DNA of 63,971 bases, filler included, from Reclinomonas americana ATCC 50394 (lineage: Eukaryota): assembly GCA_048213135.1 (NCBI GenBank). It is 9 parts of 9 records of this genome, joined end to end, with 100 filler letters (N's around TTAATTAATTAA, not from the genome) between each part and the next. Parts side by side here need not be neighbours in the genome. Positions count along the whole stretch, not along the records: positions 1 to 7,897 come from AFZH01018427.1; positions 7,998 to 13,563 come from AFZH01018429.1; positions 13,664 to 17,688 come from AFZH01018430.1; positions 17,789 to 23,927 come from AFZH01018431.1; positions 24,028 to 44,459 come from AFZH01018432.1; positions 44,560 to 46,462 come from AFZH01018433.1; positions 46,563 to 48,734 come from AFZH01018434.1; positions 48,835 to 60,083 come from AFZH01018435.1; 1 more part is not named here. One strand, written 5' to 3'. How positions within the stretch are numbered: position 1 is the stretch's first letter; every line of letters starts with the position of its first letter. The notes beneath the pieces are model-generated. The model was given only the letters and a program-made list of their open reading frames with translations, was not told the origin of the DNA and did not search any database. This document shows positions 79 through 63,563 of the stretch, one piece after another. Made by a program: the position numbers and the translations under genes.

Positions 79-1751
79 TTACACGACCAAGACGACATTG
101 TTCGGCGGTGATTCCGGCCGCACTGCGATTTCCCGCAGCGACAAGTGGCGCACGGGGCAGCCACACTGGATGGCCACGTAGAGCGCCTGCACACCATTTG
201 CGCCGACAGGATTCTCTGTGGCACCGAAAAAAATGAGGCACATACGAACGAGCAGGCGAGTGAATTCACCGCGTGCGCGCAACTCGACAGGCTCAGTTGT
301 CGCAATTCGCGGTGTTGTACCAAGGACGCCGAGAAGGCGCAGGTCGCCACATCGTTCAGACCGCAGTCTGCAAGGCGGAGTGTGGGTGAGAGAGAGAATA
401 CATACGACTTGCGAGGTGCGTGCGAGAGTGTACCTTCCAGGAGCAACACAGCGAGTCTTGGTGCCTGGTGCAGCACCATCTTCATTGCATCGGCAGTCTG
501 GAGTGGATTACCTGGCGAACGAGAGACGGCGGGAGTGTGAGCGCACTGACAGAGACGGAAAAAACGCCACATCCCTTACTCACCGCTCACGTCGAGATAC
601 TCCAGAGCCTTACATGACACCGTCTGTGCGAATAGTGCGAGGCCAGCATTGGAGATACCATTGTCTGCACAGTGGCGTGGAGTGAGTCACACCGCTCTCC
701 ACCCAGCACTGTGATTTCGCACGCAACTCGCGACATTCAAGTACGACAATGGCTGATGGCCGGCAAGTGCCACTGCCAGCACGTACATGCCAATGTCGGT
801 CAGACCTGTGCTGGCAAGATCAAGTCGCGCCAGGTATGGCGTCGCTTTCAGCAGCGGCTGCACAAACTGCGCAATGTCGGTCCCCAGTGGATTTTCTGCA
901 CAGACGCATGGTCAGATGCCAACAGGAAGCGCGCGCACACACAGCGCCGGAAGTCACGCAACGAGCCAACGAAAGGTTCTCCAGCGGACAAGCAGCACCA
1001 CTGAGCCCGGTGGCGAAATGTACAAGACCAGCCGCCGTCAAATCGTTCTGCGATAGGTCGAGCGATCGCAGAGTGCGATTGCACCGAATGGCCGTGGTGA
1101 GGTGCCGTAGACCGAGCTCGCCGATCTGATTGAAGGGAATGTACAACGACGACAGCGAGGTGGTGGTCAACAGCAATCGGCTCACAGCACGCCAGCCGGT
1201 GGGACCTGCTTCAGCATCTGTGGAGCAGCACGTTGAGCACGCTTGTCGTCACTCGCTCCAACACGACAGCGTCCGCAACTGCGTAAAAGCAGGCTCTGCA
1301 CGCCCGGGTGCAACTGAACGGCGGCACACAGCGAGTGCACGCCGTCGTGTCCAATGGGACCGGCGACACGCACGGTCGACAGCCCAGAGTACATCAGGAG
1401 ACGAGCGAAATCCGGAACCAGTCCGCCCTCACAGATTTGCTCAAACGAGACCACACTCCTGCATACGTGCATGCGCATCAGTGGCACTGACTCTCTTTTC
1501 ATCTTGCTCTCTGACACACACGTACCGCTCCAGCAGGTCACGGAACCACATGGACACGGCCCACAGGGTGCTCGCATCATCAAACGACAAGAAGGATCCC
1601 ACGAGGCGCCACAGTGGGTCCGGTAACCTGGTCGACAGCAGCGGCCGCCCACGAGTTGACTCTGCTGCCCTCTGCGCACAGAAGAATAGGAGTGAGACGT
1701 GGTGCACTTGGGCGTCGGCACGCTCGTCCACTCGGCACGAACCGTGAGCAT
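79..1751 (-). CDS. F-box + RNI-like leucine-rich repeat protein (about 8 exons; start codon tentative)
   Basis: F-box-like LPDPLWRLVGSFLSFDDASTLWAVSMWFRDL, then LRRs (LSSLYIPFNQIGELGLRHL, LRSLDLSQNDLTAAG, LARLDLASTGLTDIG, LEYLDVSGNPL). GT-AG introns restore frame. Ends VVLVV-TAA at 79. Confidence 0.72.
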
Positions 1752-3330
1752 CAACGGGAACGCGGAAGACAGTGGTGGAACTGCGCGCAAGCAAAAACCA
1801 CTGCCGTGAGTCGTTCTGCTCATACAAGACAGCAGGGAAAATGAGGCACGCAACTCTCGCGGATGCGAGCGACTGCTTTCACGCTCGACGAGGCACGCGC
1901 TGGCGCACTGTCGGGTGATGCACGCGGCAGCGGTGGAGAAAAGGCGAGTTGCGCGGTGCCGGACGACTGCATCGACGCAGGAGTGCGGGGGCTTGCCGTT
2001 GGCGGTCGCGCGAGCCCACCCACGGTGGTCGACGGCAACGCCGACGAGAATTTCATACCGGGCGACGGTCGGGTGGAGGTGGATCGCGACGCTGTCGGTG
2101 ACATGAAACTCTGGCCGAGCGACTTTTCCGCTCCTCCATCCTGCGATGAGTCAGTCAGTCAGTGCGTGTGCGAATGTGTGTGTGGCGCTTCCTCCCCGAG
2201 GTCGACGAGCGCACCGAAGAGTGATCGTCATCAGCCGACAGATTCAGAGCCTCCACCGAGACACCGGCGAGCTTCAGCAACTCCATGTCGTCACCACGCT
2301 CCAGCCGCCTGCGCAGCGTGGAGTTCCATCGATTCTTCACCGCATTCGCCGTGCGCCCGTCCAACTCCTTGGCCATACTGCATGAGAAATGAAGTGTCAA
2401 TAAAACACAGAAGAGAGAGACGCGCTGAAAGGAAACAACGCAACGCTGCCCAGCGATTGCCCATTGAGGCACGCATCCGCACAATAGCCGCGTCCTCCTC
2501 CACCGACCACTCGCCACGCTTCACTCCCGGATCCAACTGGTTGCACCAGCGCTCCCGAATCGACTTGCCCGAGCGGCCTTGACCCATGAGCTGCGCAATC
2601 ACTGATGCCACGCCCCATGAACACACACACAGGAGACGAAGAGAGGGTGAGACAAAAGGCACAGTCGCTCACCCTTCCATCGCTTCGCGCCATGCGTGCT
2701 GACCAACGATCGCAGCAGCTCATCGTCGGCCTCTGTCCACATGGTGTGCGCTGTGCAGCAATGACAGAGGGAGGGTAAAAGAGTGAGTGAAAGGTGAGCT
2801 CGCATCTCTTTCTCTCCCTCTAACACTTTCTAACTCACCTCTACTCTTTTCCTTCCTCCCTTCTACATCTCTCTCTCTCTTTCTCTCTGTCTCTCTCTCT
2901 ACCTCCCTTCCCTCTACACCTCTCTCTCTCTCTCTCTTATACACTCTCCTCACCTCGTCGCTGCTGTTGCTTCCTCGCCGAGTCTGTTCCACTGTCGGAG
3001 GAGGAGCAGGCACTGCGACCGGGAGTCGCGTCCTCCTCTTCCTCCTCCTCCTCCTCGTCCTCCTCACTGGTGGTCACGCGAGGCAAGCGTCGTGGCGCAG
3101 GCGAGTGCATCGTCACACTCGACTCCTCCTCCGCCTATGAGAGAGCGCGCGAGAGTGAGAGTTTGCGCGGGAAATGCAGCACCTGCGGTGCATTTCGCAG
3201 GTGCGTGCATATCTCTCTCTTCTCTTGTGTGAGAGGCACAGACATGCATGCACAGGTGTGTCTGTCTGTCTGTGAGAGTGAGAGGGGGAGAGAGTGACGC
3301 AACTGCGGTGACTCGCTGCGCGTCTGCCAT
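1751..3330 (-). CDS. R2R3-type Myb transcription factor (3' end either 1820 or about 1751)
   Basis: Spliced repeats WTEADDELLRSLVSTHGAKRWKVIAQLMGQGRSGKSIRERWCNQLDPGVKRGEWSVEEDAAIVRMRASMGNRWAAMAKELDGRTANAVKNRWNSTLRR, followed by an S/P-rich tail. Confidence 0.88.
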
Positions 3331-3567: not shown

Positions 3568-5648
3568 TCAGCCACGTGGCATCCACAGCTTGACCAGACC
3601 ATCCGCTGAGGCGCTGGCCAGCAACGGCTCACCCGGGTGGAAGTCGACCGAGTACACAATATCAGTGTGACCGTCGAGAGCTTGCAGGATGCGGCCGTGG
3701 CCCTGCAATGGAAGAAAAAGATGCTGAGATGAGTATGTCGGGGTTGCGCTGCTTGCTTGTTGCGTACCTGTCGTCCGCCAACGTCGTACACGTAGACTTT
3801 CTTGTTGGTGCTGCCCGAGGCCAGCAGCATGGTGCGGTTGAGATCGACGAGGAATGCACTGCGTTGCGAAGAAAAAACACCGACAATCAGCACTGTGGCA
3901 GGAGCAGCACATCTAGCAGACCACTAACACCAGACCTCTCGTCGTCGGCCGCCGAGGAACCGCCACCAGCTGCGCCATCGTCGTCTGTGGCGTCGGAACT
4001 GCCACTGCCAGTGAACTGTGAGCCGACAAAGAATGACGAGCGAATGGGCCAGTTGCGGCTCTTGGCGCCGTAGAACTCGTGCAGCAGTGAGATGCGCAGG
4101 CTGGCCTGCTTCTTCATGAGCGCACCGCGGTCAAACACGCGAGTAACATTGTCAAAACTGTTGACGGCCATGAACCGGCAATTGTCGCTCTGTAGAGGAG
4201 AAACGGAGGGAAACATGCACGTAAGTAGCTGCCTGCCATGCATGTCAACCGTCAGTCGCCAACAGTGTACCTCAGCTGTCGGGCGCGACAGCGTCACACA
4301 CGACACCGGTAGTCTCTGCTCGCCAATCTCCATGCTCTCCACAGCCTCGCCCGTTCGCATGTCCCACGTCTTCAGAACGCCCCGCTGATCCGACGACAGA
4401 ACCACCTGGCGACCCATGGCACACGAACTGCAAACATACAAGCGCGCCAATCAGCGTCGACCGCGGCGCCGTCGCGAAATATTTGAAGTGAACGCAACAT
4501 GCACGTCACTGGGTCTTGGTTGACCAGCCGTATCACCGGCTGCGCCGACGACAAGCGGTCGTCGTGGCCGTGAATGGTGCCACTTGTGTCACCGTACATG
4601 CACAAATGTGGACCTGTCGGGGATGTGAATGAGAGAGAGAGAGCAAAGAGAAAGACGGCCCAGCTTCTCTCGCATTCTCTTGCTCTCTCTGCATTCTCAT
4701 TTGCTCTCCCTCTCCCTTCCCTTCTCTCGCTTCCCTCCTCCTTTCCCATCCCTTCCCCTCTCCTTCCCCCTCTCCCTCCGGAGCAACGCACTGTGGTTGG
4801 TGGCCCACTGCACAGTCTGAATGAGTCCGGTGGCCTCCAACGCTGTGACGCAGCGGCTCGTTGCCACGTCCCACAATCGAAGCGTGCGATCAAAGGAACC
4901 CGACAAGAGTGCGTTGCTGCACACAGACATAGCAAACATGAGCATTCGTCACTCCGTTTCCCTTCTCATCTGGCAGCGGTGTGTAACCTGTCGGGTGACC
5001 ACGCCAGATCCGCCACATTGCTCGTGTGCTCAGCCAGACACGAGATCTCCCGCGGCGCATCAGAATCGAAAGCCCACAACCGCACACTGCCATCAAACGA
5101 ACCCGTGGCCAGCTGCTCACCATACGGACTGAACCGCACACAATACACAGCTCCCGTGTGCCTGCCCAAACAAACACACAAACGCAGAGGTCAGCGCCAG
5201 TTGGTGTGGATTCAAGGATACTGCCAGTAGCAACAACAACAACAACAAACCCACGCAAGTCCGCACGGAAGGAGAAGAGCGACGTGACCTCTGTCGATCG
5301 CTGCAGCGGGCGTAACCTGCTCCCCGTGCCGCGCGCATTCGACTGCGTCGGTTCCCCGCCCTCAAACGCCGACACGGGCGGCGACAGCACCGCAGTCGAC
5401 GGCGTCACCGGCGTCGTCGCAATCGTCGGCGTGGTGGCCGCACTGCCACTGCCGCCGGCACCCGCCACCGGTGGCGCTCCGGCCTGCGGCACAAACACCA
5501 CTGGCGTCGCCGGGTATCCATTCAGAATCGCCATCATGGGACTCACAGCTCCACTGGTGCCAAACGCCGCCGCCCCCTGTGCTGCAGCCGGCGTACCACT
5601 CCCAACAAACGACGCCGGTGCACCTGTCTGCACGCGCAAAGGCTGTTG

Positions 5649-7997: not shown

Positions 7998-10138
7998 GTG
8001 TGTGTGTGTGCGTCCCTCCACGAAACTGGTAATAATTACTGTAGTTTGGACTGACGTGGGTGATGAATTCGACAACGACGGCCGTGGGGTGCAACAGGGC
8101 AATGTTGGCCAGATTCGAGCCGTGCTCACCGACAAACACGGCCGCCTCGCAGTACACCATGCGCCACTGCATAAACACCTCGGTGCTGCGGCAAACAAGC
8201 ATGAGACGATGTGCCGACGATTTTTCGTCTGCTAAAAGTCCACGCAACTGTGCGCCCGACAACGGAACCAGTGCAGCTCCGATTGACAACGCGTGCAGGC
8301 GCAGAGCTTCGTACATTTCTTGTGAGTTGGCTCCGACTCGCGAGAAGCGCGTGGTGAACACCACGTAGCGCTGAAAGTTGTCGGCACTGCGGCGTGGAGA
8401 GAGCGAGTGAGCAGTCAGAACGGCGAGCTCCACATGCATCATCTCCCGCAACTATGTCGGACAGCGAGGGAATGTGGGCGGGGCGACTCGTGACGGCACC
8501 TGCGCCGCAGCTGCGCGCATGAACAGCCAGCTGTGACACCGGCGGTGAGTAGTGTGCATCAGAACAAGGAGCACTCTCCATAGCTGTGCTCACCGCACGG
8601 CAGCAATCTGCCAGGTAGTAGGCTCGCCGAGGTACTCGTTGCGACGCTGCCAGTAGCCAGCACTGACAATGGGTACGTACAGAACCTCACGAACACGTGT
8701 GAACTGCGGATCCGCTGTCGCGCTATCCGCTGCGTGTCGGCACACGGTGAGCCACTGACGCAAGCAAGCAAGCAAGCATGCATGCACATGAACACCCACC
8801 GATACCCAGCAGCGGACGCAGCCACACAGCCGTGTCATGCGGCACGCCGTGCAGCTTTAGGGTTGGGTGCGCGGCCAGGAGTGGCAGGGCGGCGACCACA
8901 CGCGGCACCAGCTCCAACAGCATGTGCCAGTAGACGTTGTGGAACGGGTTGCTGACAGAGATGGCATTGGCGACACTGGAGCGCGGCAAGGCATCCTGCG
9001 AGCGGCACACCATCTTGTGCACACTGGCCATCTCGTGCTCCTTGTACGTCGATTGCTGCACAAAGACGGCGGCCTCACGCGACGAATCACGTGGCAGCAC
9101 GGCAATCGTGTCGGACATGGTGACCACAATGTCGGCGTCGAGGGCGGTGGCATTCAGACTCAACACCACCTGTGACACAGTTGTCGGTGCTTCCATTGAG
9201 AGAGAGAGAGAAAGAGAGCGATGACGACGATGCTCACCGTGTGACCCCAGTAACTCGAGTGGCGAAACGAGGACGACAGCGGCGCAGCGCAGCCGGTCTC
9301 ACACAACTCCTGCGTGATAAAGTTGGGCCGATCGATGTACCCGCGCAGGAGAGCGCGGTGGACCTTGGGAAACGACTGCGTCGGGTGAGCAACAGCTTTC
9401 ATCGCACCGCACAACAAGCCGTCATTCGCAACGTTGCGCCTCGCATCCTCCATGTCGTGCCACAGCTGCCACTGCGATGCGAGGAGCGGACACTGCTCCA
9501 CAGGCCTCACCGACCGCGGCGGCGGCCATCGCCACACCGAGGCCTTGGCCGGGTGATCAGAGCATCGCGAAAACATGTACTCGGCGCGCGCCATGGGCGA
9601 CACCACCATGTCTCCATAGACACGATAACCGGTGCGCTCCGCCCCTCGCACATCCTCACACGACACCACATACGAGTTGCCGTGCATCGACACGCGTTCC
9701 AGGCTCCGCTGTTGCTCTTGCCACTGCGCACACATTCGATTGATCACTCTCTCCCACTCTCTCATGCACACGCGACGCGCATCACGACACCTCCTGCGCA
9801 CTGCGTCGACTCTCCTCCGATACTGCCGCCTCCAGCTCGCCCACACACCACGCCCACTGCTCATCACTCGCACTCCACGGCTGCTCATCATCGTCTTCTC
9901 CCTGCTCTTCCTGCAACAATCGTCGTGTGGCGTTTCTCCACAGCGCATCCAGGTCGCGTCGCTGCCACGTGAGCGTCCACGCATGCTGGATTCCCGCACG
10001 CGCGACCTCACCATCACTCCTGCTGTCACTGCTGCTGTTGTCACCATGCCGAGTGCGCACAACAACCACGATCGTGATGACAACAGCAACAATGATCGTT
10101 GCCACTGTCAACCATCGCGATCGTGCGCTCAGAGACAT
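7998..10138 (-). CDS. Type II membrane glycosyltransferase, family 61 (DUF563)-like; 3' end truncated by the gap
   Basis: N-terminal anchor WLTVATIIVAVVITIVVVV. NVYWHMLLELVPR and AAVFVGEHGSNLANIALLHPTAVVVEF match GT61 motifs (NYxHxxxE; HGAxLxN). Confidence 0.72.
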
Positions 10139-10836: not shown

Positions 10837-12310
10837 ATGGACAAGTGGGTGACAGCCGTGGCCGCGGCCGTGCGACGTGCACGCTCAGTGGTGTGTCTCA
10901 CCGGGTACGTGCTGGCTCCTTTGTTTCTCACTCTCTCCTCGCTCTGATCGTTTCTGCAGTGCTGGTCTGTCGGCCGAGTCGGGCATTCCGACGTTTCGTG
11001 GCGCCGATGGCTACTGGTGAGCGCGTGTCTCTCGCTGTGTCTCTCGTGAGAGGCACTCATGCATCACGCGCAGGGTCAAGGGCAAGAACTATAAGCCACA
11101 AGAGATGGTTGGTATGTTGATCTTCTCGTCGCTATTGATTGCTCACGGTGGGAGGTGTGCAGGCCACATTTGCGTTCTTTGAGCGTGGTGCGTTGCTATC
11201 GACCAGTGTGGTATGCGGGGGAGTGTGAGGCACTGATGTGTGTGCTCTTGTGCAGACCCGGAGGAGTTCTGGGAGTGGTACCAGTACCGCCATCGGGTGA
11301 TCAGCGAGGCTGAGCCAAATGCGGGACACCATGCGCTGGTTCCGTACGCTTTCCCCTGTTGTGGTGGTGAGCGAGGGTGCTGATGTTAGTTAGGCGTGCA
11401 GGTGGCACTCGAGCAGTGGTGTGCCGACAGCGGCAAGAGCTTTCAGCAGATCTCTCAAAACGTGGACAACTTGGCGCGACGTGCCGGGTGTCGGAACATT
11501 TACGAGATCCACGGTTCGTGCGTTGGCGTGTGCGTGCTTGTGTTTCCACGCTGACGGTTTCTCTGCGTTCACAGGCAACCTCAGTTTCATTCGGCACGTC
11601 GCGTCCACTCCTGCCTGCGCGCTTCCTGCACTGACTCTCGATCGCCCGCCTGATGCAGGTGCATGAGCGCGGCGACGGGCAGGGAGGAGCTGTTTCCGTG
11701 GCCGGAGGGCTCGTCCGGTGGTATTCCACCGACTCCAGCCGGTGCGCGTGGCATCCCACGACCGCACGTGCTGCTCTTTGACGAGTGCTACTACGGTGCG
11801 TCTGCTCGAGAGTGCTCTTTTTTCCTGGTGTTTGTGCACTGACTTGAAGGGCGTCACAGAGGCCATGTTCCGCAGTGAGAGTGGTACGTCAACAACTGCA
11901 CACATATATAAACAGTCGCATGACACAGTGCTGAGCAGCCATGGCGGCCGCGGAGGAGTGCGACGTGCTGATGGTCATTGGCACGATGCTGGAGACGGTG
12001 CGTGTTAGATCATCATCTCCCAGTGCGTGTCCGCACCAACTCATACGTGCCTACGCAGAGCCTTCCAGCTCAGATCGTTCTGTGTGCTCCGCCATCATCG
12101 ATAGAAGAAGCAACAAAACCTCACTCTCTCTTCCCCCCACAGGCCTGGTGCTGCTCGAACCGCGACTGGACCTTTGTGTGCGACATTAACATTTCGCACG
12201 ACCACGTCTCCGAGGGCTACATGAACGCGCCGCTGCAAGTACAGGCCAAGAGCGGTGAATTCCTGCCCCTGCTGGTGGAGGAGTTGCGTCGTCCGCCCGC
12301 CGCAGAGTGA
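10837..12310 (+). CDS. NAD-dependent deacylase, sirtuin (CobB-like), about 11 exons
   Basis: VVCLTG|AGLSAESGIPTFRGADGYW, PEEFWEWYQYR...AEPNAGHHAL, SQNVDNL...EIHG|N, RPHVLLFDE, DVLMVIGT, DINI. Confidence 0.92.
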
Positions 12311-12483: not shown

Positions 12484-13563
12484 TTACTGAGAGCCACTGC
12501 CGCTGGCAGCGGAGTTATCCGGCGGCAGCGTGTTTCGCACACGGTTGATGAAATCGGTGATTTGCGACGGCATGGCCTTGTCGACCATCCACTGGAAGAT
12601 ACGACCCCTCGGATCCGTGCACAGCGCTGCGCACAATACACCACCCGATCAGCACGTGTGCGTGTTGGAGAGAAGGGGAAACAAGTGGAAAATGAACACG
12701 CAACAGTAGCGAGCGACAAGACCACCATCCGCGTGCGGCTCCACCACCAGACCACCGGACTCCAAATGACCTCGCACCGCATCGCCGTGTTGTGGGTACG
12801 TGCTGCACGCCGGTCGATCAGCACGCAAGCAATGCACAGCTCTGACAGCAAGTCCTCCAAATTGCAAACGTAACTACTCCTCGTCGGAGAGCGAGCGTGC
12901 ATGTGTGAACCAGCGATCGCCTTCGTGACGGTTGCCCAACTGCACACGCGGGCGTGTCAACAACCACATGTGTCGTGGAATGAGGGCGCCGGAAAAAGGC
13001 ATAATTACCTGGGTCATGAGGAATTCGCGCGCAGAGATGATGCCGCCTGAGTGGAGTAGACAAAGATGCCCCGCCGGCCAACATTTATACACACGTGAGT
13101 GGTGAATGCGAGGAGAAGCGCACACACAGAGAAGAAGAACAGCAACAGCAAGTGCATTGGCGGGAGAATAGAAGCACACTCACCCATGGCGCCCTTGACA
13201 CGCTGATAAATGATTTGCGAAATGCCATGCTCCGGGTGCTTCAACTCGCCCAGCAGCTCCGCCTGCGCCAGATCGTCGTTCCACGCGCTCTTCGTCTCAA
13301 ACATCGGATCCGATGTGTACATGATGACTCGCTCCGCGTCAATGTGCTCCGGGAAGTGCAACTGAGGAAAGCACACAAAGAGAGAGAGAGAGAGAGTGAG
13401 TATGTGAGTTGTGAGTTTGTGAGAGAGCAAGCAGTCTGGCCACTCACCACTCCCATGTGCTGCGTAATGCCCGAATCGTGCTTTCGTTGAAACAGACGCA
13501 CACCGTCCTTGAGACTGTGCGCGCTCACATGAGCAATTCTTTCTCTTGCTCTCTCTCTCTCTC
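12484..13563 (-). CDS. START-domain lipid-transfer protein (5' end possibly in the gap)
   Basis: KSAWNDDL, GGIISAREFL, AVRGHLESGGLVVEP and TDPRGRIFQWMVDKAMPS resemble STARD4/5/6-type motifs. Confidence 0.7.
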
Positions 13564-15459: not shown

Positions 15460-17688
15460 TCATGTTGGATGCGCGTCGTGGAAACACAGATCGGCCACCT
15501 ATCTCACAAGCAGCGGAGGAGTGAGTGTGTGTGTGTGTGTGTGTGCGTGAACGGGAGATGAGAGGGGGGGCAACAGCACGCAACCACAGGAATATGATCC
15601 GAGGGAAACGAGGCATTTGGTCCACCCTCCTCGCCGTTCGGACAGAAGTCGTGCGCCTTGAGACCACTCAGCACGGCACTGCACACCAACCGATCGACGT
15701 CGTAGAAAATGTAGTCGAGACAGCCGAGCCAGTTCTCACGATAGTTGGTGAATTCGGGTTCGTCGCCTGGCACGACACGTGAGAACGAGGAGAAGAGATC
15801 CGACGCCACACTACCAGTTGTTGTGAAAAGCACACTCACCGAGAACCTCCAGCATGGCACTGGCCATATTCAGTGTGTGTGGCCGGACGCACCTTGGCAA
15901 CGCCTGCGAAAGCAAGTGAAAGTCCTCGTGGCCGACACCCTGCAGGGGCCGGAAACGTGAGTGGCAACACCGAGGCAACTCTCTGTGCGCACACAACACT
16001 CGCACCTGAAAATGCTTGCCATTCGCCATGTACTGGTGCACACTCATGCTGGGCAGGCTGTTGAAATCGCCGGCAAACACCAGCGCCGGGTGCGTGTTGG
16101 TGCGGTGTGTGAAATTGGCCAGCGATTGTTGCACAAACTGCATGAGTTTGACGGCCTGGTAGAGCTTCACGTCGGCCAGCGAGGCATTGGAGACGAGATG
16201 TGTGTTGCATACACACAGTACTGCACGGGCACAGAAGAGAGAGAGAGAGAGAGAGAGAGTGAGAATCACGAAGAGAAGAATGTGCTTTTCTTCTACGCCA
16301 ACGCCAACCTCGTGAGGGCGGTGGGCGACGCACGTCGCTGGCACGCCACGGCGACTCGTGTGGTGGATCGGAGAGCGGATCTCGCAGGAACGTACGCAAA
16401 TCGCTCATATCAAACAACCGATCGTCCATCGGTGGGCCCATCTCCAGCACGCCCTGCGTGCGCGACGGTTGCGGTCGAGTGCTGCTCATGACATTGCCGA
16501 GTGCAGCCAAGAATCGCTGTTCTGCCACGTCGCCCACCAACGCATCAATCTGCATGGTGAACCACACGCACACACACAGACGGATTGAGTCACGCGTGTG
16601 GGTGTGAGCGTGTGAGGGATGGGGCGAACCGGCTCGAGGTACACAATGTTGGCGACGTTGTGCTTGAGAAAGCGACTGAGAAGGGCGGAGCGCTCGCCAA
16701 TGTCCGGATCGTTGCGCGCCATGTCGGCGAAACTGACATCAACATGCTGCAGCAGACGGAACCTGTGGTTGCGTGAGATCACGATGCCTCAAGCATGCAC
16801 ATGCATCCGCTGCCAGCGCACCTGCTCACGCGATAAAAGACGGCACAACCGTCCATGGTGGAGTCATCTGGGTGCTCGTTGCCGGCGTCGGTCGTGCGTG
16901 CCTTGAAGACGCCAGCATAGCCGCGTCTGTTCAGAGCGTCACCCAGAAGCCCGTTGTACAGGTCCGTGCCCAACTCCTGCTCCACCAGCGTTGAGTGGCA
17001 GTGCCGCAGGAGGGCAGGCAGGCACGAACACACACAGATACTCACCTGGAAGCATGCAATGTCGGGATTGATCACGGCCAGGTCCTCGAGAATGAGCGTC
17101 AGGCGGTAGTCCACGTTGGAGAAGTCGACACGATCCACCGACTGCGCCGACACGTAGCGCGGTGCCAGCAGATTGTAACTGCACACACGAATGTGGTCAT
17201 CGCCTGCACGCAGGGGCGGCGCGCCAGTGAGCGCCACATAGACGGAGAAGAAGAACAAGGAGAAGAAGACAACACACCACGCGTGACGCGCAGCGAGTCT
17301 CTCCGCAGCGCTCTGTTCTGCACAAACGAGCGCACTCCGGGAGCCCGCCGCGGCTTATGCACAATGGTCTTGAGCGGCAACGTGGCCAACGGCTGCGCAT
17401 TGGCATGCAAGTCGCCCACCGGCCACAACTGCACCACAATCACCTTGCCGACGTCCTCCACCTGCGGTCGATACACCCTACTCTCGCACAGCATGAGGCA
17501 CTGCGCATACACACACAGAGACAAGCACGCACGCAACAGTCCACGACAGATGAGCTTCATGGGCGCGTCGGGATCGGCATTCTCTCGTCGCCACCACAGA
17601 CACTCAATGCGCATCTCGGCCTCGGCCGCGCTCAGGAAGCGCTCGCCCACCGCCGCTGTGGACAAGCACACACACACATGGGCACACT
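15460..17688 (-). CDS. CCR4/PDE12-like EEP-family nuclease/deadenylase (5' end truncated by the gap)
   Basis: RVCSYNLLA, DIACFQ|E, DGCAVFY, VCNTHL, AGDFNS, FTNY...LDYIFY and FPSDHIPV|VADL. The N-terminal YRPQVEDVG segment resembles CCR4/PDE12. Confidence 0.88.
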
Positions 17689-20418: not shown

Positions 20419-21651
20419 TCACCTCGGAGTGGCCCCTGTAGCACGTTTTGCCAACGCAGTGAGAATCGAGAGACGGCGAGAGAGAGAGAGGCTGGAGAGC
20501 GACGAGGCACACCTGACTTGCGGGCCGACATACCCCCGTCGCCATGTAATTCCACCGCCAGCTCCGGTCGCCCAGCCGAGGTCTGCCCTCGGTAGCCGTC
20601 GGCCGACTCGAACCCCGCCGCCGCCACTGCCACAGGTGTCAGTGACTCACACGGGAAACGAACAAACAAACAAACAGACACGAACCGACATCCGTGTCCG
20701 TATCTACGCGACCCGCACTACGTGCCAGGTACTCCATCATTCTGCGCCATGCGGGGATCAGTTCACCGTCGCCGACACTAGTGGGTGAGAAGCGCACGCA
20801 ACTCCTTCTCCGCCTGATCGCCTTCGTCGTCCAATTCCTCGTCAGTGGACTGCACACAGCGATCGCAACAATCAGACTGCCTCGCTCAACCTTCTGTAGC
20901 TGGGGACGAGCTACACACACACACACAGACACACATACACACCCTGGCAGTGCGCCGAGCCGAGGCCCCGGCCGACGAAGATCCTTTCGAAGACTTGCCC
21001 GAACGCGCACGCCCGGTCGAGGCGCTACCACCATACAGCTGTGAGGTCGACCGTCGATGCGCCTTGGCTGCGGCCAGACGCTGCCTCTTCTCCTCCTCCT
21101 GCAGTAGCTCTGTTCGTCGTCGCGAGATGCGTTGCTGGTGTGTCGACACACAGATCAGGCCCGGAGAGAGAGAGAGAGAGAGAAGAGAAAGGAGAGAGCG
21201 AGGTCACCTGCAGATCGTGTTCCTCCAGCAACCGGCGAAACTCCTCACGCTCTGCATTGGTGAACTCCTGCTCAATGATGCTCAGCTTGCTCTTGTTCCG
21301 ATCCAGGTCCAGGATGCGACCATCGGCGTCGATCTGTGCGTGTGCGCGTCATCAAACACACACACACACGCTCTCTCTCTCACACACACTCTCTCACTCA
21401 CCAGTCCGTGCTTGTAGAGAACGGTTTGCACATTGCGACTCTCAAAGAAGCTGCGCAGGTGACCATCGGTCAGCGCGTTGTACGTTGGCAATCGAGCTCG
21501 TGCCATTCCGTCCAGTGAGAAGCCGGCCTCGCGCTGACGCATTCGCTCGGCCTCAACTGCTTTTCTGTGAAACGAGTGGTGCTCGTGTGAGAACTCACTG
21601 AAACGAGCGTGAGTGCGTGGGAGAGAGAGCAAGGTGTGACCTTCTCGACAT
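20419..21651 (-). CDS. Coiled-coil protein with an ERICH3-N-like motif (possibly ciliary)
   Basis: LPTYNALTDGHLRSFFESRNVQTVLYKHGL|IDADGRIL resembles the YNSLxDxHL..F......L...GLI...G.I motif of the ERICH3 N-terminus. Confidence 0.5.
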
Positions 21652-45010: not shown

Positions 45011-52136
<7,126 letters not shown>

Positions 52137-52209
52137 GTGAAATTGGTAATTTTGGCGCCAAAATTGGAGTTTCAACCGTTTCCGCGTTGTGTGAGTGCGT
52201 GCAAACCCA

Positions 52210-55200
52210 ATGCGTGTGTCTCACTCGCGCACACCCCGACTCGCTGTGGCACGCACACTCTTGTGTGTGACAGCGATCGTCCACTTGCTCATCCTCTCCA
52301 TCGCCGTCCCTGCGAGTTGCGTGTGAGGGGGGCAGTGTGGGCGCTTACGCTTGTATCTTATGCGCCGCTGTGTGTCTCGTTCGACTCTCACTCACGTATA
52401 ACACGCACACTCGACTCCTCTCTCCATGCGCGCCACAGACGCCCAGACAGTGACCACCGCCGTTGCCAGCAACATCACTGGCGCAACCGCCACTCTCAAT
52501 GCATGGGTCAATCCCAACAATGTCGCTGGCGGCACCACCAACTCTTTCGAGTGGTCTCTATACACCGCCGCCATTGGTGTCTCCTCGGCCACTGTCTCCA
52601 CCTTTGCGGGCACGGCGGGCACCTCGGGAACGACGGATGGCGTTGGAGCCAGCGCGTTGTTGAACACGCCAATGGTTTGTGCGCGAAAGGTGACCCTGCT
52701 GTGCACTTTCGCTGACACAATGCGTGTGTGCTCTCTCCACAGGGACTGGCCTTTGATGCGATGGGCAACATGTACGTGGGCGATTACGGGTTTGTCATGC
52801 ACGCACTACACTCACTTTTCCTGTTTGTCGATATTGTTGATTCGTCACTTCTTGCTCTCTCACTGCGCGATGATGATGGCAGCAACTGTCGCATTCGGCG
52901 AATCACGCCTGCAGCAACGGTGACCACGTTTGCGGGAAGCACGTGCGGCCTGCTTGATGGCACAGGAGTGGCTGCTCAGTTCAAAAAGTGCGCTCCTGCT
53001 CCTGCTCTCTCTCTCTCTCTCTCTCTCCCTCCCTCCTCCCTCCCTTTCCGCACTCACACACGCACACAGTGTTGCCGGTCTCGCCATCGACCAAACCACG
53101 GGAACCATGTATGTCGCCGACGTGAGTGTGTGGTGGCGTGCATGAATCACTCTTGATTGCCACACACAGTCTGCTGACTCTGACTCTCTGCGTCTCTCTC
53201 CCACAGTTGACGAACCACGCTGTGCGTGCCGTCACTGCGGGAGCAGCTGTCACCACACTGGCGGGAAACGGAGCGTCGGGGAGTGCCAATGCCTCGGGCG
53301 CAGCCGCCTCCTTCAATCAGCCTGTGGGAGTCGCGGTGGACTCCGCGAACCAAGTGGTGTATGTGGGCGACTGGCTCAACAACACTGTGCGGCGAGTGAC
53401 CTATGCTGGTGCGGTGACGACCTTTTGTGGCGCTGCGGGCATGAGTGGCACTGCCGATGGCGCGTGTGCTGGAGCGGCGCGGTTCGGTGGTCCGAACGGC
53501 GTGCTTCTCGTTGGAACCACGCTGTATGTTGGTGAGTGCTGTGTGAGAGGGAGGCACTGAGATGCCCTTCCTCTCTGCTCATCTGCGCCTTCTGCTTGGT
53601 TTTGGGTGAGTGCAGCCGACCGCGTGAATAACTCCATCCGAACCATCGACACGGTGGCGATGACGGTGACGACGGTGGCTGGTTCAACGAGCGGCACGTC
53701 AGGATCCACGGATGCCACCGGTGAGTTCATCATCATGTGCAACCCCATGTGATCCTTTTCATTCATGCTGAAAGATGACTCCAGGAACGGCCGCCCGCTT
53801 CAACACGCCCGTGGGTATGGCATACGACGCAGGAAACAATGTCATCTATGTTGCCGATGTTGAGTACCTCCGCACACTCTGAGCGTTTCGCTTCTTGACA
53901 TGACTGCCTGAACTCTCACACAGTCTTCCAACAACACTGTGCGGCAACTCCGAGTGTCAGACTCGTCAGTGTCGACGATTGGCGGCGCGGCGGGTGTGAG
54001 TGGTTCAGCCAACGGCAGTGCTCTGACCGTGGCACGCTTCAACTCGCCCGTGCACCTCGCCTTCGATGCATCGACGGCGTCTGTGTTGGTTGCTGATTAC
54101 ACCACGCACATCATCCGTCGCCTCTCGCTGGCGTCGCAATCAGTGTCGGCCACACCCGCCACCGCCACTGGCTCCCTCGCCACCTCCATCACCGCTTCAC
54201 TGACTGGATTGATGAGCAACTGGACGTACTACTATCGCGCCGTCGGTGTCACCTCCACACCCAGCACCGTCAATGGTGCCACGGTGTCATTCACCACCAC
54301 CACCAACGTGGCTCCGACCGACATTAGCTGCTCGTCGACGACATACGTTTCGCCGTCGGTGGCGAATCAAGTCGTGTGCGGGCTGCAGACGACGGACGCG
54401 AATGCTGGCCAGTCGTTCACATACACGATTGTCGGTGGCGCCAACAGCGCAGTGTTTTCGATCAGCGGACAATCGCTGGTGATAGTGGCGGCGGTGCAGG
54501 CTGGCAGCTCGCTGGCGGTGACGATCCGGTCAACAGACAATGGATCGCCGCCGCTATTCTTTGACAAGGCGTTTACCATCACCACAGGTGAGGCGATGTG
54601 ATACTGCAGTCTCTGTTTCTGTCACACTTTCGTTTTTTTGATTCTACTTCTTCTTCCCCCTCCTACTTCTCCTCCTTCTTCGCTTCCTTCCCTCATCTCA
54701 TGTTGAAATGTTCCTCACCCTTGTTTATGCATCACAGCCACCCAATCGCTGGCCACGCTTGCGGCCAGCAGTGTGACGACGTCGTCGGCGACATTGAATG
54801 CGGTGGTGGGCAACTCTGTGGCCGCCTCGACGATGAGCAATTCATTCGAGTGGGCGCCCTCGGCTGCTGCCTTCGGTGTGACGCCAGTAGTGTCGACATG
54901 GGTGGGCACGGCGGGCATGACTGGCTCAACAGATGGCACGGGTAGTGGTGCTCTGTTCAACAAACCGATTGTGAGTTTCTCGCCCCTCCCGTCCTCTCGT
55001 CGATAGCTGCTCTGCTCATTGTCGTGGCGACTGGCAGAGTATTGCGATCAACGCATCGGGTACTGCCTTTGTGTGCGATCAAGTTAACAACACAATTCGG
55101 CAAGTGACGAGTGGAGGCGTTGTGTCGACGTTTCTGGGTAGTGCAGGAGCGGTAGGCTTTGTAAATGGGATCGGCACTGCTGCGCGGTTTAGCTCCCCCA

Positions 55201-58200
55201 CTGGCTCATCGATCGACTTGACCACGGGGTATTTGTACATCACTGATGTTGCGTGGTGTCCTTTCGATACGTGTGTTGTCGAGTGTGATCGTCTGACTGG
55301 CACGCTTTCCAGCAAGGAAATAACGCGATCCGTGTAAGCACTCCTTCTGGCTCTGTATCAACTCTGGCTGGTAATGGGTCCTCTGGCACGGCGAATGGTA
55401 CCGGATCGAGCGCGAGATTCACCACACCGCACGGCATTGTGGTTGACTCGTCCAACAAAGTGATGTATATTGGTGACTGGCAGAACTACGCCATCAGAAA
55501 GGCGCGTATGTTCATTACTGCACTGCCTGTGTCAGTGAACTCACAGCCTGGTTTTCTAACTCCGCAGGTCACATTCGGTGGCGAAGTCACAACGTACTGT
55601 GGCACGATTGGGTCATACTCTTATGCCGACGGTGCATGCACACCAACAGCACGGTTTGGCGGACCATCTGGTGTGGCACTGGATTCAACAACCGATCGGC
55701 TGTACGTCGGTGCGTGTGTGTGTGTGTGTGTGTGCGTGTCTATGTGTGCGTTTCGGTTGATCCATTGACCAAGTGTGCTGACTTCTCTCGAGCAAACTGA
55801 GCAGCTGATCGAGATCGTAACAACATTCGTGTGGTCGACATGCTGGCGATGACGGTGTCGACTCTGGCCGGTTCGCTTACTGGAGCTGCAGGATCGACAG
55901 ATGCTACTGGCACTGCTGCTCTTTTCAGTGGACCGATTGGCATTCAGGTTGATCGAGGCCGAGGTGTTCTCTATGTTTCCGAAGTTGCGTTTCGCGATTA
56001 ATTGGCAGTTTTTCATTTGCATCGCCTTACCCCTCTATATGCATAGAGGACTGGTCACACAATTCGTCAAATTGTCATCAGCACAGGTGCGGTCACAAGA
56101 ATTGCCGGTACAGCTGGAGTCGCGGGCACAGCAGATGGTGATCCACTCCTTTCCGCCAAGTTCAATGGCCCGGTATGCCCTGCCCTGTGTTGTAACTTTT
56201 GCGATGGTGAGATTGCTCTCAACTCACGTGCTTTTTATGGGTGCAGATTTATATGTCGTACCACTCCGCGTCATCCACGCTGTACATCGCAGGTGCGAGG
56301 TCTCCATCAAGTTGTGCGTTGTGCGATCGTTGCTCTTTCGACGTCTCATCAGTCTGCTTGCAGATTACCTGAATCACACCATTCGCCGACTCACCATCGG
56401 CTCCGCCACCATCACGGCCACTCCGGCCGCCTCTGGCATCGCCTCCAGCACCGCTCTCACCGCGTCGCTGACATCACTTTCCGCCAACTGGGCGTACTAC
56501 TTCCGTGCCATCTCCACTTCCACCGTGCCGAGCACTCTCACCGGTTCCACTATGTCCTTCACCACCTCCAACTCGGCACCGACCGACATTGTCTGCTCAA
56601 CTACCACTTATGTCGCACCGTCAACTGCCAGCATGCCTGTATGCACGATGAGCACCAGCGCCGATAACGTGGGACTGTCTTTTACGTATACGGTTAACGG
56701 TGGAGCGAACGGCAGTGCGTTTTCGGTAAGCACCGGCGCACAGCTGCAGATCACAGCGGCGGGACAGTCGGGCAGTCCATTGGCCGTCACGATTCGCTCA
56801 TTCGACAATGGCACGCCGCCGATGTTCTTCGACAAGTCGTTCAGTGTGATGTCGGGTGAGTGATGTCGATTAAGAGTACTTTATCTTTTCGGTGTGGATG
56901 CTGAGTTCCTTTACATGCAGTGAACAATGCACCGACGGCGGTAACGCTGAGTGCTAGCTCGTACATTCCGCCCAGCACGGTGGGTCTGGCGATTGGCACG
57001 ATGAGCACGAGTGACGTGGACTCGCAGCAGTCGTTCACATATTCGGTGGTGGGAGGTGCCAGCAGCGCATTGGTGACGGTTGCATCTGGGAACCAGCTGC
57101 AGTTTGTGACTGCGAATGTTACAACGTCGCTGGTGGTGATTGTGCGCACGACCGACAATGGCAATCCTGCCATGTCATTCGATCAGACGCTCAACATTGC
57201 TGGTTGCGTGTTGTGTGTGAAGTTGTGATGCAACATGATGCTGAATTCCTCGCATGCAGCACCCACTGTTACTTCGCTGTCGGCCACGTTTGTGTGGGCA
57301 CTGGCTGGCCAGTTGATAACACTTACGGGTACTGGATTGCTGAACAACTCGGCTGATGCAGCCGCGTATGTGTTAGCCACTCCTCGATGTGGCGCCACGA
57401 CGCCGCCGACTGCCGTGGCCAGCACCAGCATCAGCAGCGCATTTGGAAGTGCGACCAGCATCACGTTGACGATTGGAGCGGCGGGTGCAGCTGGTGGCAC
57501 GTACGAGCTGTGCACTCGATGGTTGCCTGCCAAGGGATATGTGGCGGTGTCGGCATTCGCGATTGGTGAGGGGAGAGAGAGAGAGAGGGCAGAGAATTCG
57601 AGCTCTCTTTTTGCGTGTCGTCGTCTGAACAGCATGTGCAGGAAATGTGGCGCCGAGTGACATTCTCCTGTCGGGACCGCAAACGTACTCGAGTGCGACG
57701 GTGCCATTCACGGTGGGCACACTGAGCATGGTGGATCTCAACACTGGACAGACGCCGACATTCAGCATTGTGGGCGGTGTGCATGCGGCTCTGTTCAGCA
57801 TCGTGGGCGGCAATCAGCTGACGATCTCGGTGGCCCCGCCTCTGTATCGCCGACTGCAAGTGTTTGTGCAAGTGAGCGACGGGGCGTTGACGTACACCAA
57901 GCAGTTCACGATTGCGTATGGTGCGCGGGTAGGGAAGGAGGAGACGGGAAGGGGGAAGAGGGGAAGGGAAGCAGCAGATCTGTACGGTTACTGTCGCCCT
58001 CTTTTCTCCTGTGAAGCTGCACATCGGTGGGCGTCAGTGGTTGGTGCTGAGAATTGGTGGGTGCTTGTGCAGTTTGGGGCGCAGGTTGCACGACGGTGCA
58101 GAATGGGATGGTTGCTCGTTGCGTAGCTTGTCCATGAGATGTTGACGTGCGAGCCGTCATCAGTTGTCTCACTCTCCATCACATCGAGAGCAGCGGCGTT

Positions 58201-59925: not shown

Positions 59926-59969
<44 letters not shown>

Positions 59970-60917: not shown

Positions 60918-63563
60918 CTGGCATGCCAGTCCGCGGCGAATCTTGACCACACCGGTGAACACGCGAGGATTGTTGTAGATTTCGGCCAGTGTGGCAATCG
61001 CCATCACCTGCGGGATGGCGCAGAACCTAAAGATGGCCGGATGGCGCAGCTTGGACAAGTACTCCATGCAGTGCGGAATGTGTCTCAGTGCGTCGGTGAC
61101 CAGTTCGTTCAGGCAGCCGATAGCCTGGTGGGAGGCACACACAGTAAGTGAGTTGCGAGAGTCTCCTTCACGATCTCTCTCTCTCACTCTCTCTCCCACT
61201 GCGAACCAGTGTGGCGTTCTCTGGCTTTGTAAAGTCCTTGATGTTGCGCGCGTACTTGGACCACACGTCGCGCGGCCAGAACATGCGTGTTTGTTGCACA
61301 TCCTCGAGGTAGTCGCGGATAATGTTGGTCTTTTGCAGGAAGAGGCCCATGGAGACGGAGATGTCGCGGGCGTGCTCGAAGGAGGCGTCTGCACACGGGG
61401 GAAGGGAGGGTGAGGGGGAAGGTGAGGGGGAAGGGTGAGGGGAATTTAGGGGAAGAAAAGGGGAAAGGGGAAGAGAAGGAGAAGAGAGGAAGTAAGGAGA
61501 AGACAGGGAGGGTATGGAGGAAGGGTAAGGGGGAAGATAAGGAGAAAGGGTAAGAGGAAGGCTGAGGGGAAGAGGAAGGGAGAGAGGGAGAGAAGGAGAA
61601 GAGAGGAAGGGGAGACAGAGAGAGAGAGGCTGAGCAGAATCGAAAGAAGAACGCCAAGGTGAGGCAGAGAGCATCAGGTAGACACCGTGACAACGAGACT
61701 GTGAGACGAATAAAGAAGAAATAAGAGAAGGAGAGATTGCGAGAGGTGCGTGTGAGACTGAGAGGGGGTGCGTGAGCGAGATACGGACAAAGAGAGATCG
61801 AGAATAAGAGAGAGAGAACAGACTGAGAGACAGTGAGAGAGATGCGCAGAGAGAGACTGAGTCCTCTCTTTTACACACTCTCGTTCTCTCCCATCACAGT
61901 CTCTCTCATTTCCGCCGTCACTTTGTCCGTAACACTCTTCGTTGTCTCATTGCGTGTTATAGAGTGAGGGGCTATTAAGGAGGGTGGGAAACTGCGGTAG
62001 AGAATGCGAGAGACAGTGAGAGAGTGCGAGTGAGGACGTGAGAGATGTGCATGCAGAAAGAAAGAGAGGTACTTAGTGAGAGAGAGTGAGACTGAGAGGC
62101 AGAGCGAGAGAGTGAGTGAGAGACTGAAGGGGAAGAGAGCATGGCGAAAGGAATCTCTACTCTCCTCCCCTCTCCTATTCCCTTCCCTATCTACGCAACG
62201 TTCCAATCCCGACGCCGCAAACATGCGCGACAGGCCGACACCGACCAGACCCGCCACATAGAAGCAGTAATCGTCCCAATCGCCAATCGTGTCCACCTCG
62301 CGCACCAAAAAGATGGCCATTCCCTCGCCCATCTCGCGGCAAATGTCGCGCACCACCGCCTGGTACTCCGGCTTCATGGAGTTGAAGACCTCGGAGACCT
62401 TGTCAAAGTTCTTCATCAGGTCGACGTACTCCTCCTTGTCGCCGTCTGTGGAAATAGAAGAAGGGGAAAGGGGATGTGGTGAGCGGAATGAAGGAGAAGG
62501 AGAACGAGACAAGAGCTGAGAGGTGAAGGAACTGTGGAGAGATAGTGCGGCACGAATAACAGGGAGACAGAGGAGAAGGAGACAGGGCGGCAGCAGAGCA
62601 AGGAGATGCAAGAAAGTGCAGGAGAAGGAGGCAGAGAGAAACATGAACATCACTCGGAAGAAGAAGAGGGAGAGAGCGCAAAATATCAGCCTCGAGTGCA
62701 AGAACATGTGCAAGTGACAGAGGGCAGAGAGATGCAACAGAAAAGATGCAGAGAGGTGAATATCAATCGAAAGAAGGAGAGGGAGAGTGAGACCTGGGCA
62801 TCAGCCTCGAGTGCAAGTCCCACAATGAACATCTGGGAGAGACGTAGCGGACATACACGATGCAAGAATGTGCAAGAGAAAGGGGTCAAGGACAACACGA
62901 ATATCACTCGGGAGAAGGAGTTAGGCCTGAGTATCTCCCTCGATTACAAGGAAGACCCCACAAAGAGCCTGCGCGGGCAGAGGAGAAGGAGAGAGAGAGG
63001 CAGATGCAAGACAAAAGCGAATGCAAGAGAAAGGGGTCAAGGGCAACACGAATATCACTCGGGAGAAGGAGCGAGACCCGAAATATCACCCTCAAGTGCA
63101 AGGAAGACCCCACAAAGAGTCTGTGCGAGTGACAGAGAGAAGGAGAGAGAGTGAGGCAGATGAAAAACAAGCGCAGGTGAAGGAGGCAGAGAGAAACATA
63201 GATATCAATCGGAAGAGGGAGAGGGAAAGTGAGACCTGGGCATCGCCCTCAAGTGCAAGGAAGACCATGCGCGGGAGGCAGAGTAAACAAGACCACGTGT
63301 TCCGAAACAGCAATCCGAACACACATACAAGCAGGCAAACTCACATGGAGGCAACGCCTGCTGCGACTCCAGCTTGGTATACAACGTCCGCAGCAGCGCA
63401 TCGCGATCCGCCGCCGGCACCGTTGTGTCGTCCTCTACGAAGAGAGAGAAAGTGAAACAAACTTGCGTCAGTCACACAGCCAGCGAGACGAGAGGAGAGG
63501 CAAGAGGGGAGGGCACGAACCAACAGTGTCCAGTGCGCGCAACACGAGGTAGAACACGCAAAT
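60918..63563 (-). CDS. FDFT1: Squalene synthase (farnesyl-diphosphate farnesyltransferase), internal exons; termini not located
   Basis: [57 protein letters not shown] and [22 protein letters not shown]. Confidence 0.95.
62600..63270 (+). repeat. Five degenerate 115-150 bp tandem units inside a squalene synthase intron
   Basis: Core AAyATCAmTCGrrAGAAG...CCTCrAGTGCAAG at about 62645, 62759, 62900, 63051 and 63201. Confidence 0.8.

Follow-up and report, generated by a model that had tools for sequence, protein, structure and literature searches.

Can a spliceosome cut ordinary introns at 5' splice sites whose recognition word lies in two positions, one base apart? The question is raised by a stretch of DNA from Reclinomonas americana ATCC 50394 (assembly GCA_048213135.1), here called the window, which comprises 63,971 bases with a G+C content of 55–60% and is dense with genes broken up by short introns. 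Beside donors such as GTGCGT, introns in the window begin with GTTGCGT or with other words of the form GTT-NN-GT, and an earlier note had listed 32 such sites, described each as a normal donor lengthened by a T at +3, and put the class at about 15–20% of introns. The results presented here are of ordinary GT-AG introns with 5' splice sites in two discrete registers, and on balance we lean towards a single U1 small nuclear RNA (snRNA), its pairing shifted as a whole, as the reading of them.

A second donor word, one base out of register

All 22 positions listed as GTTGCGT carry this word on the strand given, and the ten variants are likewise as described, namely GTTGAGT at 25976 (minus strand), 46743 and 53859 (plus), and, all on the plus strand, GTTGTGT at 40245 and 48072, GTTCCGT at 11339 and 49295, GTTTCGT at 37492 and 45598, and GTTCTGT at 12077. 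In a model-free k-mer test over both strands, GTTGCGT occurs 45 times where 13.6 copies are expected under an order-2 Markov model, whereas the words with another inserted base stay flat (GTCGCGT 14 versus 15.6, GTGGCGT 22 versus 20.3, GTAGCGT 2 versus 3.0). Under an order-5 model the excess is small (45 versus 34.6, rank 445 of 14844), since two words within it, GTTGCG and TTGCGT, are enriched as well. Relative to the final gene model, whose choice of strand is partly donor-dependent, 39 of the 45 copies are sense, five antisense and one intergenic. At the start of one intron GTTGCGT occurs twice, 9 nucleotides (nt) apart (31321 and 31330, plus strand), which is possibly a tandem alternative donor pair.

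The offset of the word was counted in 218 higher-confidence predicted introns (45–135 nt, ending in YAG). GCGT starts at +3 in 24 of them and at +4 in 27, with 1–5 introns at each other position where it occurs (+5 to +8 and +10 to +13), and the base at +3 is T in every one of the 27 introns with GCGT at +4. Among predicted donors of the window with T at +3, 40 of 90 have GT at +6/+7, against a GT frequency of 8.2% deeper in the introns (self-trained model); the earlier note had named this comparison with the intron background as one that could refute the class, and the enrichment is present, in agreement with both the k-mer test and the introns fixed by homology alone. Two donor registers one base apart, as had been proposed, are borne out by these counts, the displacement being T-specific and the GTT-NN-GT class being found in 14 of the 17 gene models and in all three phases.

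Junctions fixed independently of the donor word

Cut sites were placed with a profile-to-genome spliced aligner of our own, which requires GT and AG only and is blind to donor positions +3 to +9. A DIS3 profile built from 50 homologues reported 18 introns, of which 11 in the gap-free conserved RNB part (28280–30636) were kept; those left out were six upstream (26506–27947), where the alignment is weak and the predicted lengths run from 69 to 197 nt, and one of 179 nt within the kept range (29212–29390), over a poorly aligned stretch. Three of the 11 kept DIS3L introns begin with GTTGCGT (29685, 30203, 30555), and the donors of the other eight are GTGAGC, GTGAGG, GTGCGT (twice), GTGGCC, GTTTTT, GTACGT and GTGCAC. 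A PYROXD2-like profile (40 homologues, up to 70% identical) aligned with a score of 2142 and four introns with gap-free flanks, one beginning with GTTGCGT (18577) and the others with GTTCGT, GTGTGC and GTGTGT. In the homology-only sample from these two genes, 4 of 15 introns fall in the GTT-NN-GT class.

Profile coordinates place further junctions. At the Myb donor 2444 the last 24 residues of the upstream exon correspond to positions 1–24 of the Myb hidden Markov model (HMM) and residues 2–20 of the next exon to positions 27–45, with positions 25–26 filled by the split codon and residue 1 of that exon, and an intron with a normal donor (GTGAGC, 2602..2672) interrupts the preceding Myb repeat at that same profile position, in the same phase. 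The exons ahead of donors 46743, 53859 and 48072 end at NHL HMM position 19, and the spacing of 6 residues from the NHL aspartate to the conserved I/V is equal across normal and shifted donors, including 55248. In the squalene synthase gene the SQS_PSY HMM match breaks off at position 135 (nt 62210) and is taken up again at 139 (nt 61377); together with the acceptor, this break fits donor 62199 to within one residue and implies an intron of about 820 nt. By homology and profile coordinates, ten GTT-NN-GT junctions (29685, 30203, 30555, 18577, 2444, 46743, 53859, 48072, 55248 and 62199) are thereby placed directly before the first G.

The statement that conserved motifs fix the cut stood for DIS3L, where the alignment across HFT/SPIRRY is gap-free, and for Myb, through the Pfam coordinates. 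The two other motifs invoked did not give a fixed point: the junction at 15584 lies 3 residues past the end of the Exo_endo_phos Pfam domain of the EEP gene, for whose exon no homologues were found in a protein homologue search, and the ERCC8 junction at 25976 is a tentative one drawn from the human protein, the ERCC8-like open reading frame and two WD exons giving generic WD40 matches or none in representative and PDB searches.

Some further observations concern the same genes. The homology-fixed DIS3L donors at 28905 (GTGGCC), 29101 (GTTTTT) and 30376 (GTGCAC), all on the plus strand, have no G at +5, and donor recognition in Reclinomonas americana tolerates very weak matches of this kind. 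Introns at or near the end of the YVAD-type motif of NHL repeats (45598, 45907, 46743, 48072, 53122, 53859 and 55248, plus strand) include both donor classes, which suggests that the classes have interconverted over time at these positions. The PYROXD2-like protein (17821–20282, plus strand) has relatives up to 70–72% identical in transcriptome-like and metagenome contigs, many with an N-terminal GFA domain (PF04828); 9 of 80 loci of its metagenome relatives were examined and were intron-free or had other donors (GTCTGT, GTATGT and the like), so that they offered no ortholog comparison for the shifted donor.

Gene models and frequency of the class

Frequencies were taken from a combined gene model with coding potential, branch and acceptor matrices, length and a first-order donor model, all self-trained on the window. 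It predicted 258 introns and recovered all 11 verified DIS3L introns, although this recovery is no independent test, the branch seed having been taken from the same 11 introns. The ERCC8-like and squalene synthase genes are partly wrong in it, the latter because its intron of about 820 nt exceeds the model's limit of 400 nt. GTT-NN-GT donors make up 40 of the 255 N-free predicted introns, or 16% (30 GTTGCGT and 10 other), and the proportion estimated in the earlier note is therefore about right. Of the 32 listed sites, 26 are donors in the final model, which misses 45117, 52316, 62199, 25976, 40245 and 49295, and 33 of 39 GTT-NN-GT introns would bring an in-frame stop or a frameshift if retained.

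Simpler models were tried and set aside. A single-strand gene finder with a neutral donor (GT only) over-predicted, giving 296 introns, 18 of them with GTTGCGT donors; a two-strand version gave 142 introns, 57 of them motif-like, and 3 of the 11 verified DIS3L introns, with GTTGCGT as the top 7-mer (13 of 142); and a self-trained donor model without a branch model recovered 4 of the 11. A signal-only intron scan, using 3' signals and no donor model, gave 300 introns against 339 in shuffled sequence at a threshold of 8, again with GTTGCGT as the top 7-mer (9 of 300), and 180 introns against about 90–130 in controls after expectation-maximization. A codon-substitution model of paralogue conservation gave fuzzy boundaries, because the duplicated introns are still alike. 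A standard gene finder built on one donor matrix would wrongly annotate many genes of Reclinomonas americana, and our own donor-blind models failed on most verified introns.

The introns have a median length of about 70 nt, GT-AG ends and a branch-like CTSAY 12–37 nt ahead of the YAG, and CTSAY-like motifs are also seen in the 11 verified DIS3L introns; by these sequence features the GTT-NN-GT introns belong with U2-type GT-AG spliceosomal introns. U12-type introns carry an extended ATCC-type donor box and a matching branch box. This identity was considered and rejected, the donors being GTTGCGT and similar rather than ATCC-type, and an Rfam search of the window gave no match to any family at the gathering score, hence no snRNA gene (no U1, U6, U11, U12 or U6atac).

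Loss of the exon-end G

The two registers also differ on the exon side. G at -1 precedes GTTGCGT in 4 of 30 predicted donors against 18 of 28 for GTGCGT (p=1e-4), and the contrast persists when the tandem-paralogue gene is removed (3/25 versus 15/25, p=9e-4). It is common before other normal donors (GTGAGT 12/20, GTTCGT 7/9), and the 22 listed sites have it in 4 cases against 9 of 12 homology-fixed normal donors (p=0.002). T at +3 by itself is not responsible, because GTTnGT donors keep the G in 17 of 21; nor does a strong intron side account for the loss by compensation, since the G is kept before perfect GTGCGT donors; the donor model cannot have created the contrast, because exon positions were scored alike for all classes. 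On the intron side the GTT-NN-GT class is more constrained than the normal class and is close to a fixed heptamer (30 of 40 are GTTGCGT): directly ahead of the conserved G, C and A stand at 27:2, compared with 24:19 for normal donors (p=5e-4). The description of these sites as a normal donor plus an extra T at +3 is thus right as to a one-base displacement by a T; the bulge that it implies does not agree with the lost G, and the class is not the normal donor spectrum with a T added.

A proposed shift of the U1 duplex and its alternatives

The loss of the exon-end G appears to fit a shift of the whole U1 duplex, with G+1 in place of G-1, better than a bulged T. A whole-duplex shift would predict the loss of G at -1, and a bulge would leave exon-side pairing unchanged; that G at -1 is no longer selected in a shift is an expectation derived here rather than a published criterion. 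The consensus is displaced by one base and the cut is still at GU, as in a shifted register. The signal is (A)G/GUGCGU-like in the normal register and /GUUGCGU in the second, and set one above the other G/GUGCGU and /GUUGCGU are a single letter apart; the U1-binding word would have moved by one base, and most likely a single U1 small nuclear ribonucleoprotein (snRNP) would pair with the word G-N-U-G-C-G-U in both. In the normal class C9 of U1 would face the exon-end G and C8 would face G+1, whereas in the second class C9 would pair with G+1, C8 would stand opposite U+2 as a mismatch, and A7 would pair with U+3. U6, U5 and Prp8 would then fix the cut at a later, independent step, choosing the first GU within the stretch that U1 has bound, and the cut would fall one base upstream of the place given by the U1 register alone.

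Several points weigh against this reading. Homology, reading frames and the GT-AG rule are what places the junctions; if both intron ends slid by one base together, the protein would usually stay the same, and at 29685 and 30203 the messenger RNA would be identical as well, so that the GT-AG rule decides. The 255-intron set comes from a self-trained model whose donor scores were drawn from the same window, and the gene models blind to the donor performed poorly, finding 3 of the 11 verified DIS3L introns. Nor do exon positions -1 and -2 cleanly mirror the normal -2 and -3: A at -1 occurs in 10 of 32 listed sites (p=0.11), and A at -2 is likewise high (15 of 32), in part because NHL repeat codons are non-independent. 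A at -1 as a mirror of normal -2, seen in 16 of 40 sites of the model set, was for this reason dropped as an argument. Duplex energies, calculated with ViennaRNA and the textbook 11-base U1 arm from a table in PMC4856993, point the same way: normal donors are predicted to pair at a mean of -6.6 kcal/mol and in the canonical register in 78 of 84, whereas the shifted class is predicted to pair weakly (mean -1.7 kcal/mol, n=34) and in no consistent register, G+1 facing C9 in 3, C8 in 6 and another position in 9, and being unpaired in 16. The near-fixed C at +5 is unexplained by the textbook U1, which has a pseudouridine opposite.

On these calculations a changed U1 5' arm is a plausible prediction. 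When 16 arm variants at positions 5–6 were compared, G5 C6 was predicted to be best for all three donor groups (-9.0, -7.3 and -6.3 kcal/mol); with it the conserved G would pair with C4 in 33 of the 34 shifted donors, and G+1 with C9 (a shift) in 15 and C8 (a bulge) in 7, remaining unpaired in 12, these being figures for a hypothetical arm and not evidence on the real snRNA. We put forward, as a tentative proposal that is rather doubtful as it stands, that positions 5 and 6 of the U1 5' arm carry G and C where the textbook arm has its two pseudouridines, which would make the arm fully complementary to GUGCGU, so that a single U1 would read two registers and about one in six introns would be recognised one base off while still being cut at GU. 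If so, the genome would offer a natural, genome-wide separation of the site recognised by U1 from the site that is cleaved.

The alternative closest to a whole-duplex shift is a bulged-U register, in which U1 would pair normally with G+1 and U+2, one U of +2/+3 would be flipped out, and pairing would resume at GCGU. One-nucleotide bulges, including at +3 (or +2), are among the registers validated at human sites (PMC4856993), the predicted minimum-energy duplex with the G5 C6 arm takes the bulge form in those 7 of 34 donors, and the two adjacent U's would make the position of the bulge degenerate, which could explain the T-specificity. A bulge would nevertheless leave the exon-side and G+1/U+2 pairing unchanged while weakening the helix, and the sites disagree on two grounds, both indirect: G at -1 ought then to be no rarer than it is before normal donors, but it is rarer (4/30 versus 18/28), and GCGT preceded by GTC, GTG or GTA shows no excess. 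We regard it as unlikely, if a contender.

We give little credence to two U1 variants, with the arm of a second U1 gene fully complementary to GUUGCGU serving the class. The near-fixed heptamer has the information content expected for full pairing, and the textbook arm is predicted to bind the class poorly, as given above; a dedicated arm with the usual CC would, however, still favour G at -1, which is depleted there, and the Rfam search found no snRNA gene in the window. Equally improbable is that UGCGU is read by a protein or by U6 rather than by U1, with one or two bases tolerated up to the cleaved G. UGCGU is common to both donor classes, and the homology-fixed donors without G at +5 would imply that U1 pairing is not very demanding; a reader confined to the intron side would hardly account for the coupled change at -1, and PMC4856993 ascribes to U6 little pairing potential with the 5' splice site.

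An artefact or chance effect, whether through misplaced junctions, a compositional motif or the spread of introner-like elements, is very improbable and largely refuted, for although the signal-only scans did no better than shuffled controls, the conservation-only model picked other GTs at 48072 and 55248, and the order-5 expectation covers most of the count, ten junctions are fixed by homology or profile coordinates, GTTGCGT is the top donor 7-mer in the two donor-blind runs in which 7-mers were ranked and accounts for 18 of 296 donors in a third, and intron interiors have no similarity except tandem-paralogue pairs and low-complexity runs. Introner-like elements were rejected on an all-versus-all comparison of the 218 intron interiors, in which the best 25 of 74 matches (E<1e-3) were such pairs and runs.

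Gene content and feature coordinates

Pfam anchors on long open frames identify LRR, Myb, WD40, GT61, DUF1168, F-box and squalene synthase genes on the minus strand, and a PYROXD2-like oxidoreductase, a DIS3-like exonuclease, a Macro-domain gene and a tandemly duplicated NHL/PAN/TIG gene on the plus strand. The best database relatives of the DIS3L exon (Naegleria, Willaertia, oomycetes, Balamuthia) are just 46% identical, and the proteome of Reclinomonas americana itself therefore seems to be absent from the collections. The NHL/PAN/TIG-domain gene, of about 7 kb, is present as copy A (44937–52000) and copy B (52152–58718) on the plus strand, with DNA identity of 73–88%, introns included; copy B has an additional exon block of about 300 nt, and a long (GT)n and related microsatellite in copy A (48550–49020, plus strand) has a short counterpart tract in copy B (55710–55751). 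Sixteen runs of N form 8 pairs, in each of which two stretches of 44 N enclose 12 readable bases (7898–7997, 13564–13663, 17689–17788, 23928–24027, 44460–44559, 46463–46562, 48735–48834 and 60084–60183), and have the look of masking, not of gaps in the assembly; two of these fall within introns or exons predicted for the NHL gene. The coordinates of the introns are given in Table 1.

Table 1. Introns of the GTT-NN-GT class in the window and two introns with normal donors for comparison.
Feature	Position	Strand	Basis and remarks
DIS3L intron, GTTGCGT, 72 nt, phase 0	29685..29756	+	Donor-blind profile alignment, gap-free (IFANH/VVAARLYDYFP)
DIS3L intron, GTTGCGT, 85 nt, phase 2	30203..30287	+	tblastn homologues with query residues 876/877 contiguous (YTHFT/SPIRRYAD); spliced alignment
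DIS3L intron, GTTGCGT, 82 nt, phase 2	30555..30636	+	Spliced alignment ASDWF/ALYYAG, no gap
PYROXD2-like intron, GTTGCGT, 61 nt, phase 0	18577..18637	+	Spliced alignment, score 2142, no gap
Myb intron, GTTGCGT, 67 nt, phase 2	2378..2444	-	Pfam Myb HMM coordinates
NHL copy A intron, GTTGAGT	46743..46808	+	NHL HMM position 19; D-to-I/V spacing 6
NHL copy B intron, GTTGAGT, paralogue of 46743	53859..53923	+	NHL HMM position 19, spacing; interiors 97% identical over 31 nt
NHL copy A intron, GTTGTGT	48072..48134	+	NHL HMM position 19; repeat spacing
NHL copy B intron, GTTGCGT, paralogue of 48072	55248..55312	+	Repeat spacing and 3' signals; conservation-only model chose a GT 5 nt downstream
Squalene synthase intron, GTTGCGT, about 820 nt, C/T-rich low complexity, ten times median length	61380..62199	-	SQS_PSY HMM; acceptor GTGTGCAG; within one residue
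LRR intron, GTTGCGT	665..727	-	Gene model only; flanking exons match LRR_6
LRR intron, GTTGCGT	896..962	-	Gene model; also donor-blind run
Intron, GTTGCGT, beyond the earlier list	1781..1854	-	Gene model
WD-repeat gene intron, GTTGCGT	4428..4498	-	Gene model
Intron, GTTGCGT, beyond the earlier list	8186..8248	-	Gene model; in-frame read-through possible
Intron, GTTGCGT	12627..12704	-	Gene model
EEP (CCR4-like) last intron, GTTGCGT	15499..15584	-	Gene model; Exo_endo_phos HMM ends 3 residues earlier
EEP first intron, GTTGCGT	17478..17537	-	Gene model; in-frame read-through possible
Intron, GTTGCGT	20742..20802	-	Gene model
WD40 (ERCC8-like) intron, GTTGCGT	25540..25609	-	Gene model
DIS3L C-terminal intron, GTTGCGT	31321..31379	+	Gene model; outside aligned part of profile
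DIS3L C-terminal intron, GTTGCGT, beyond the earlier list	31495..31560	+	Gene model; in-frame read-through possible
Intron, GTTGCGT	33779..33850	-	Gene model
Macro-domain gene intron, GTTGCGT	35308..35378	+	Gene model
Intron upstream of PAN-domain exon, copy A, GTTGCGT	51391..51466	+	Gene model; 94% identical to 58118 over 51 nt
Intron upstream of PAN-domain exon, copy B, GTTGCGT	58118..58193	+	Gene model; paralogue of 51391
Copy B intron, GTTGCGT	55984..56048	+	Gene model; weak acceptor ATAGAG
Copy B intron before TIG exon, GTTGCGT	57203..57259	+	Gene model; next exon begins at TIG HMM position 1
Intron, GTTTCGT	37492..37560	+	Gene model
NHL copy A intron, GTTTCGT	45598..45674	+	Gene model
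Intron, GTTCCGT	11339..11401	+	Gene model
Intron, GTTCTGT	12077..12142	+	Gene model; in-frame read-through possible
Copy A candidate intron, GTTGCGT, 3' end uncertain	45117..45236	+	Paralogue-conservation model only; final model spans it with a longer intron
Copy B candidate intron, GTTGCGT, 3' end uncertain	52316..52438	+	Paralogue-conservation model; absent from final model
Comparison: Myb intron, normal donor GTGAGC	2602..2672	-	Exon ends at Myb HMM 24, next begins at HMM 26
Comparison: PYROXD2-like intron, GTTCGT, T at +3, normal register, G at -1	19098..19162	+	Homology-fixed

Comparison with known systems

In humans, shifted U1 pairing has been shown by suppressor genetics at a handful of splice sites, and it is treated as an exception that confuses splice-site predictors. 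In the account given by the earlier note, the human shifted sites have A-A at +4/+5 where Reclinomonas has G-C. The likeness drawn there to rare human GUUAAGU-type sites is upheld in that the local consensus is displaced by one base; as at the human sites the GU is still cleaved, and +3 is U in Reclinomonas. Unlike the human shifted sites, the class accounts for about 16% of predicted and 4 of 15 homology-fixed Reclinomonas introns, consists of nearly one heptamer, and is known here from sequence, the human sites having come from suppressor-U1 genetics.

Work on N6-methyladenosine in U6 distinguishes two major classes of 5' splice site, by exon-side (AG/GU) versus intron-side (GURAG) contacts. 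As there, a class with a strong intron side and a weak exon side stands in Reclinomonas beside a class with G at -1; unlike there, the intron-side word is displaced by one base, and simple compensation between the two sides fails to account for this, G at -1 being retained by perfect GTGCGT donors (18/28).

As Tan et al. 2016 (PMC4856993) describe, the shifted register, where every base pair between the 5' splice site and U1 is moved by one position, is experimentally established at human sites, the shifted-register sites of Roca and Krainer 2009 being described in the same source and the bulge registers of Roca et al. 2012 being cited both there and in PMC9311317. All validated noncanonical human registers together are estimated to comprise 1.5% of 5' splice sites, 3119 of 201,541 (PMC4856993; summary in PMC9311317), and the shifted sites are a small part of that 1.5%. 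Like the human bulge registers, for which a bulge at +3 (or +2) is among the validated schemes given there, the Reclinomonas class has one extra nucleotide between GU and the conserved G; unlike them, it loses G at -1 and tolerates T alone as the extra base. In the accessible literature on the heptamer, on shifted and noncanonical registers and on protist donor consensus (including PMC10599564 and PMC13326754, with subscription journals and genome-paper supplements outside the scope), no description was found of an organism with a shifted word as a routine donor.

If the whole-duplex shift of a single U1 is correct, a genome with one fixed shifted word at about every sixth intron would mean that the spliceosome can use two registers routinely, and would provide thousands of natural test cases of a cleavage site fixed independently of U1. 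Set beside the known systems, the Reclinomonas class is a variant, at high frequency, of the shifted register known from human sites; the feature that is new here is its lost G at -1.

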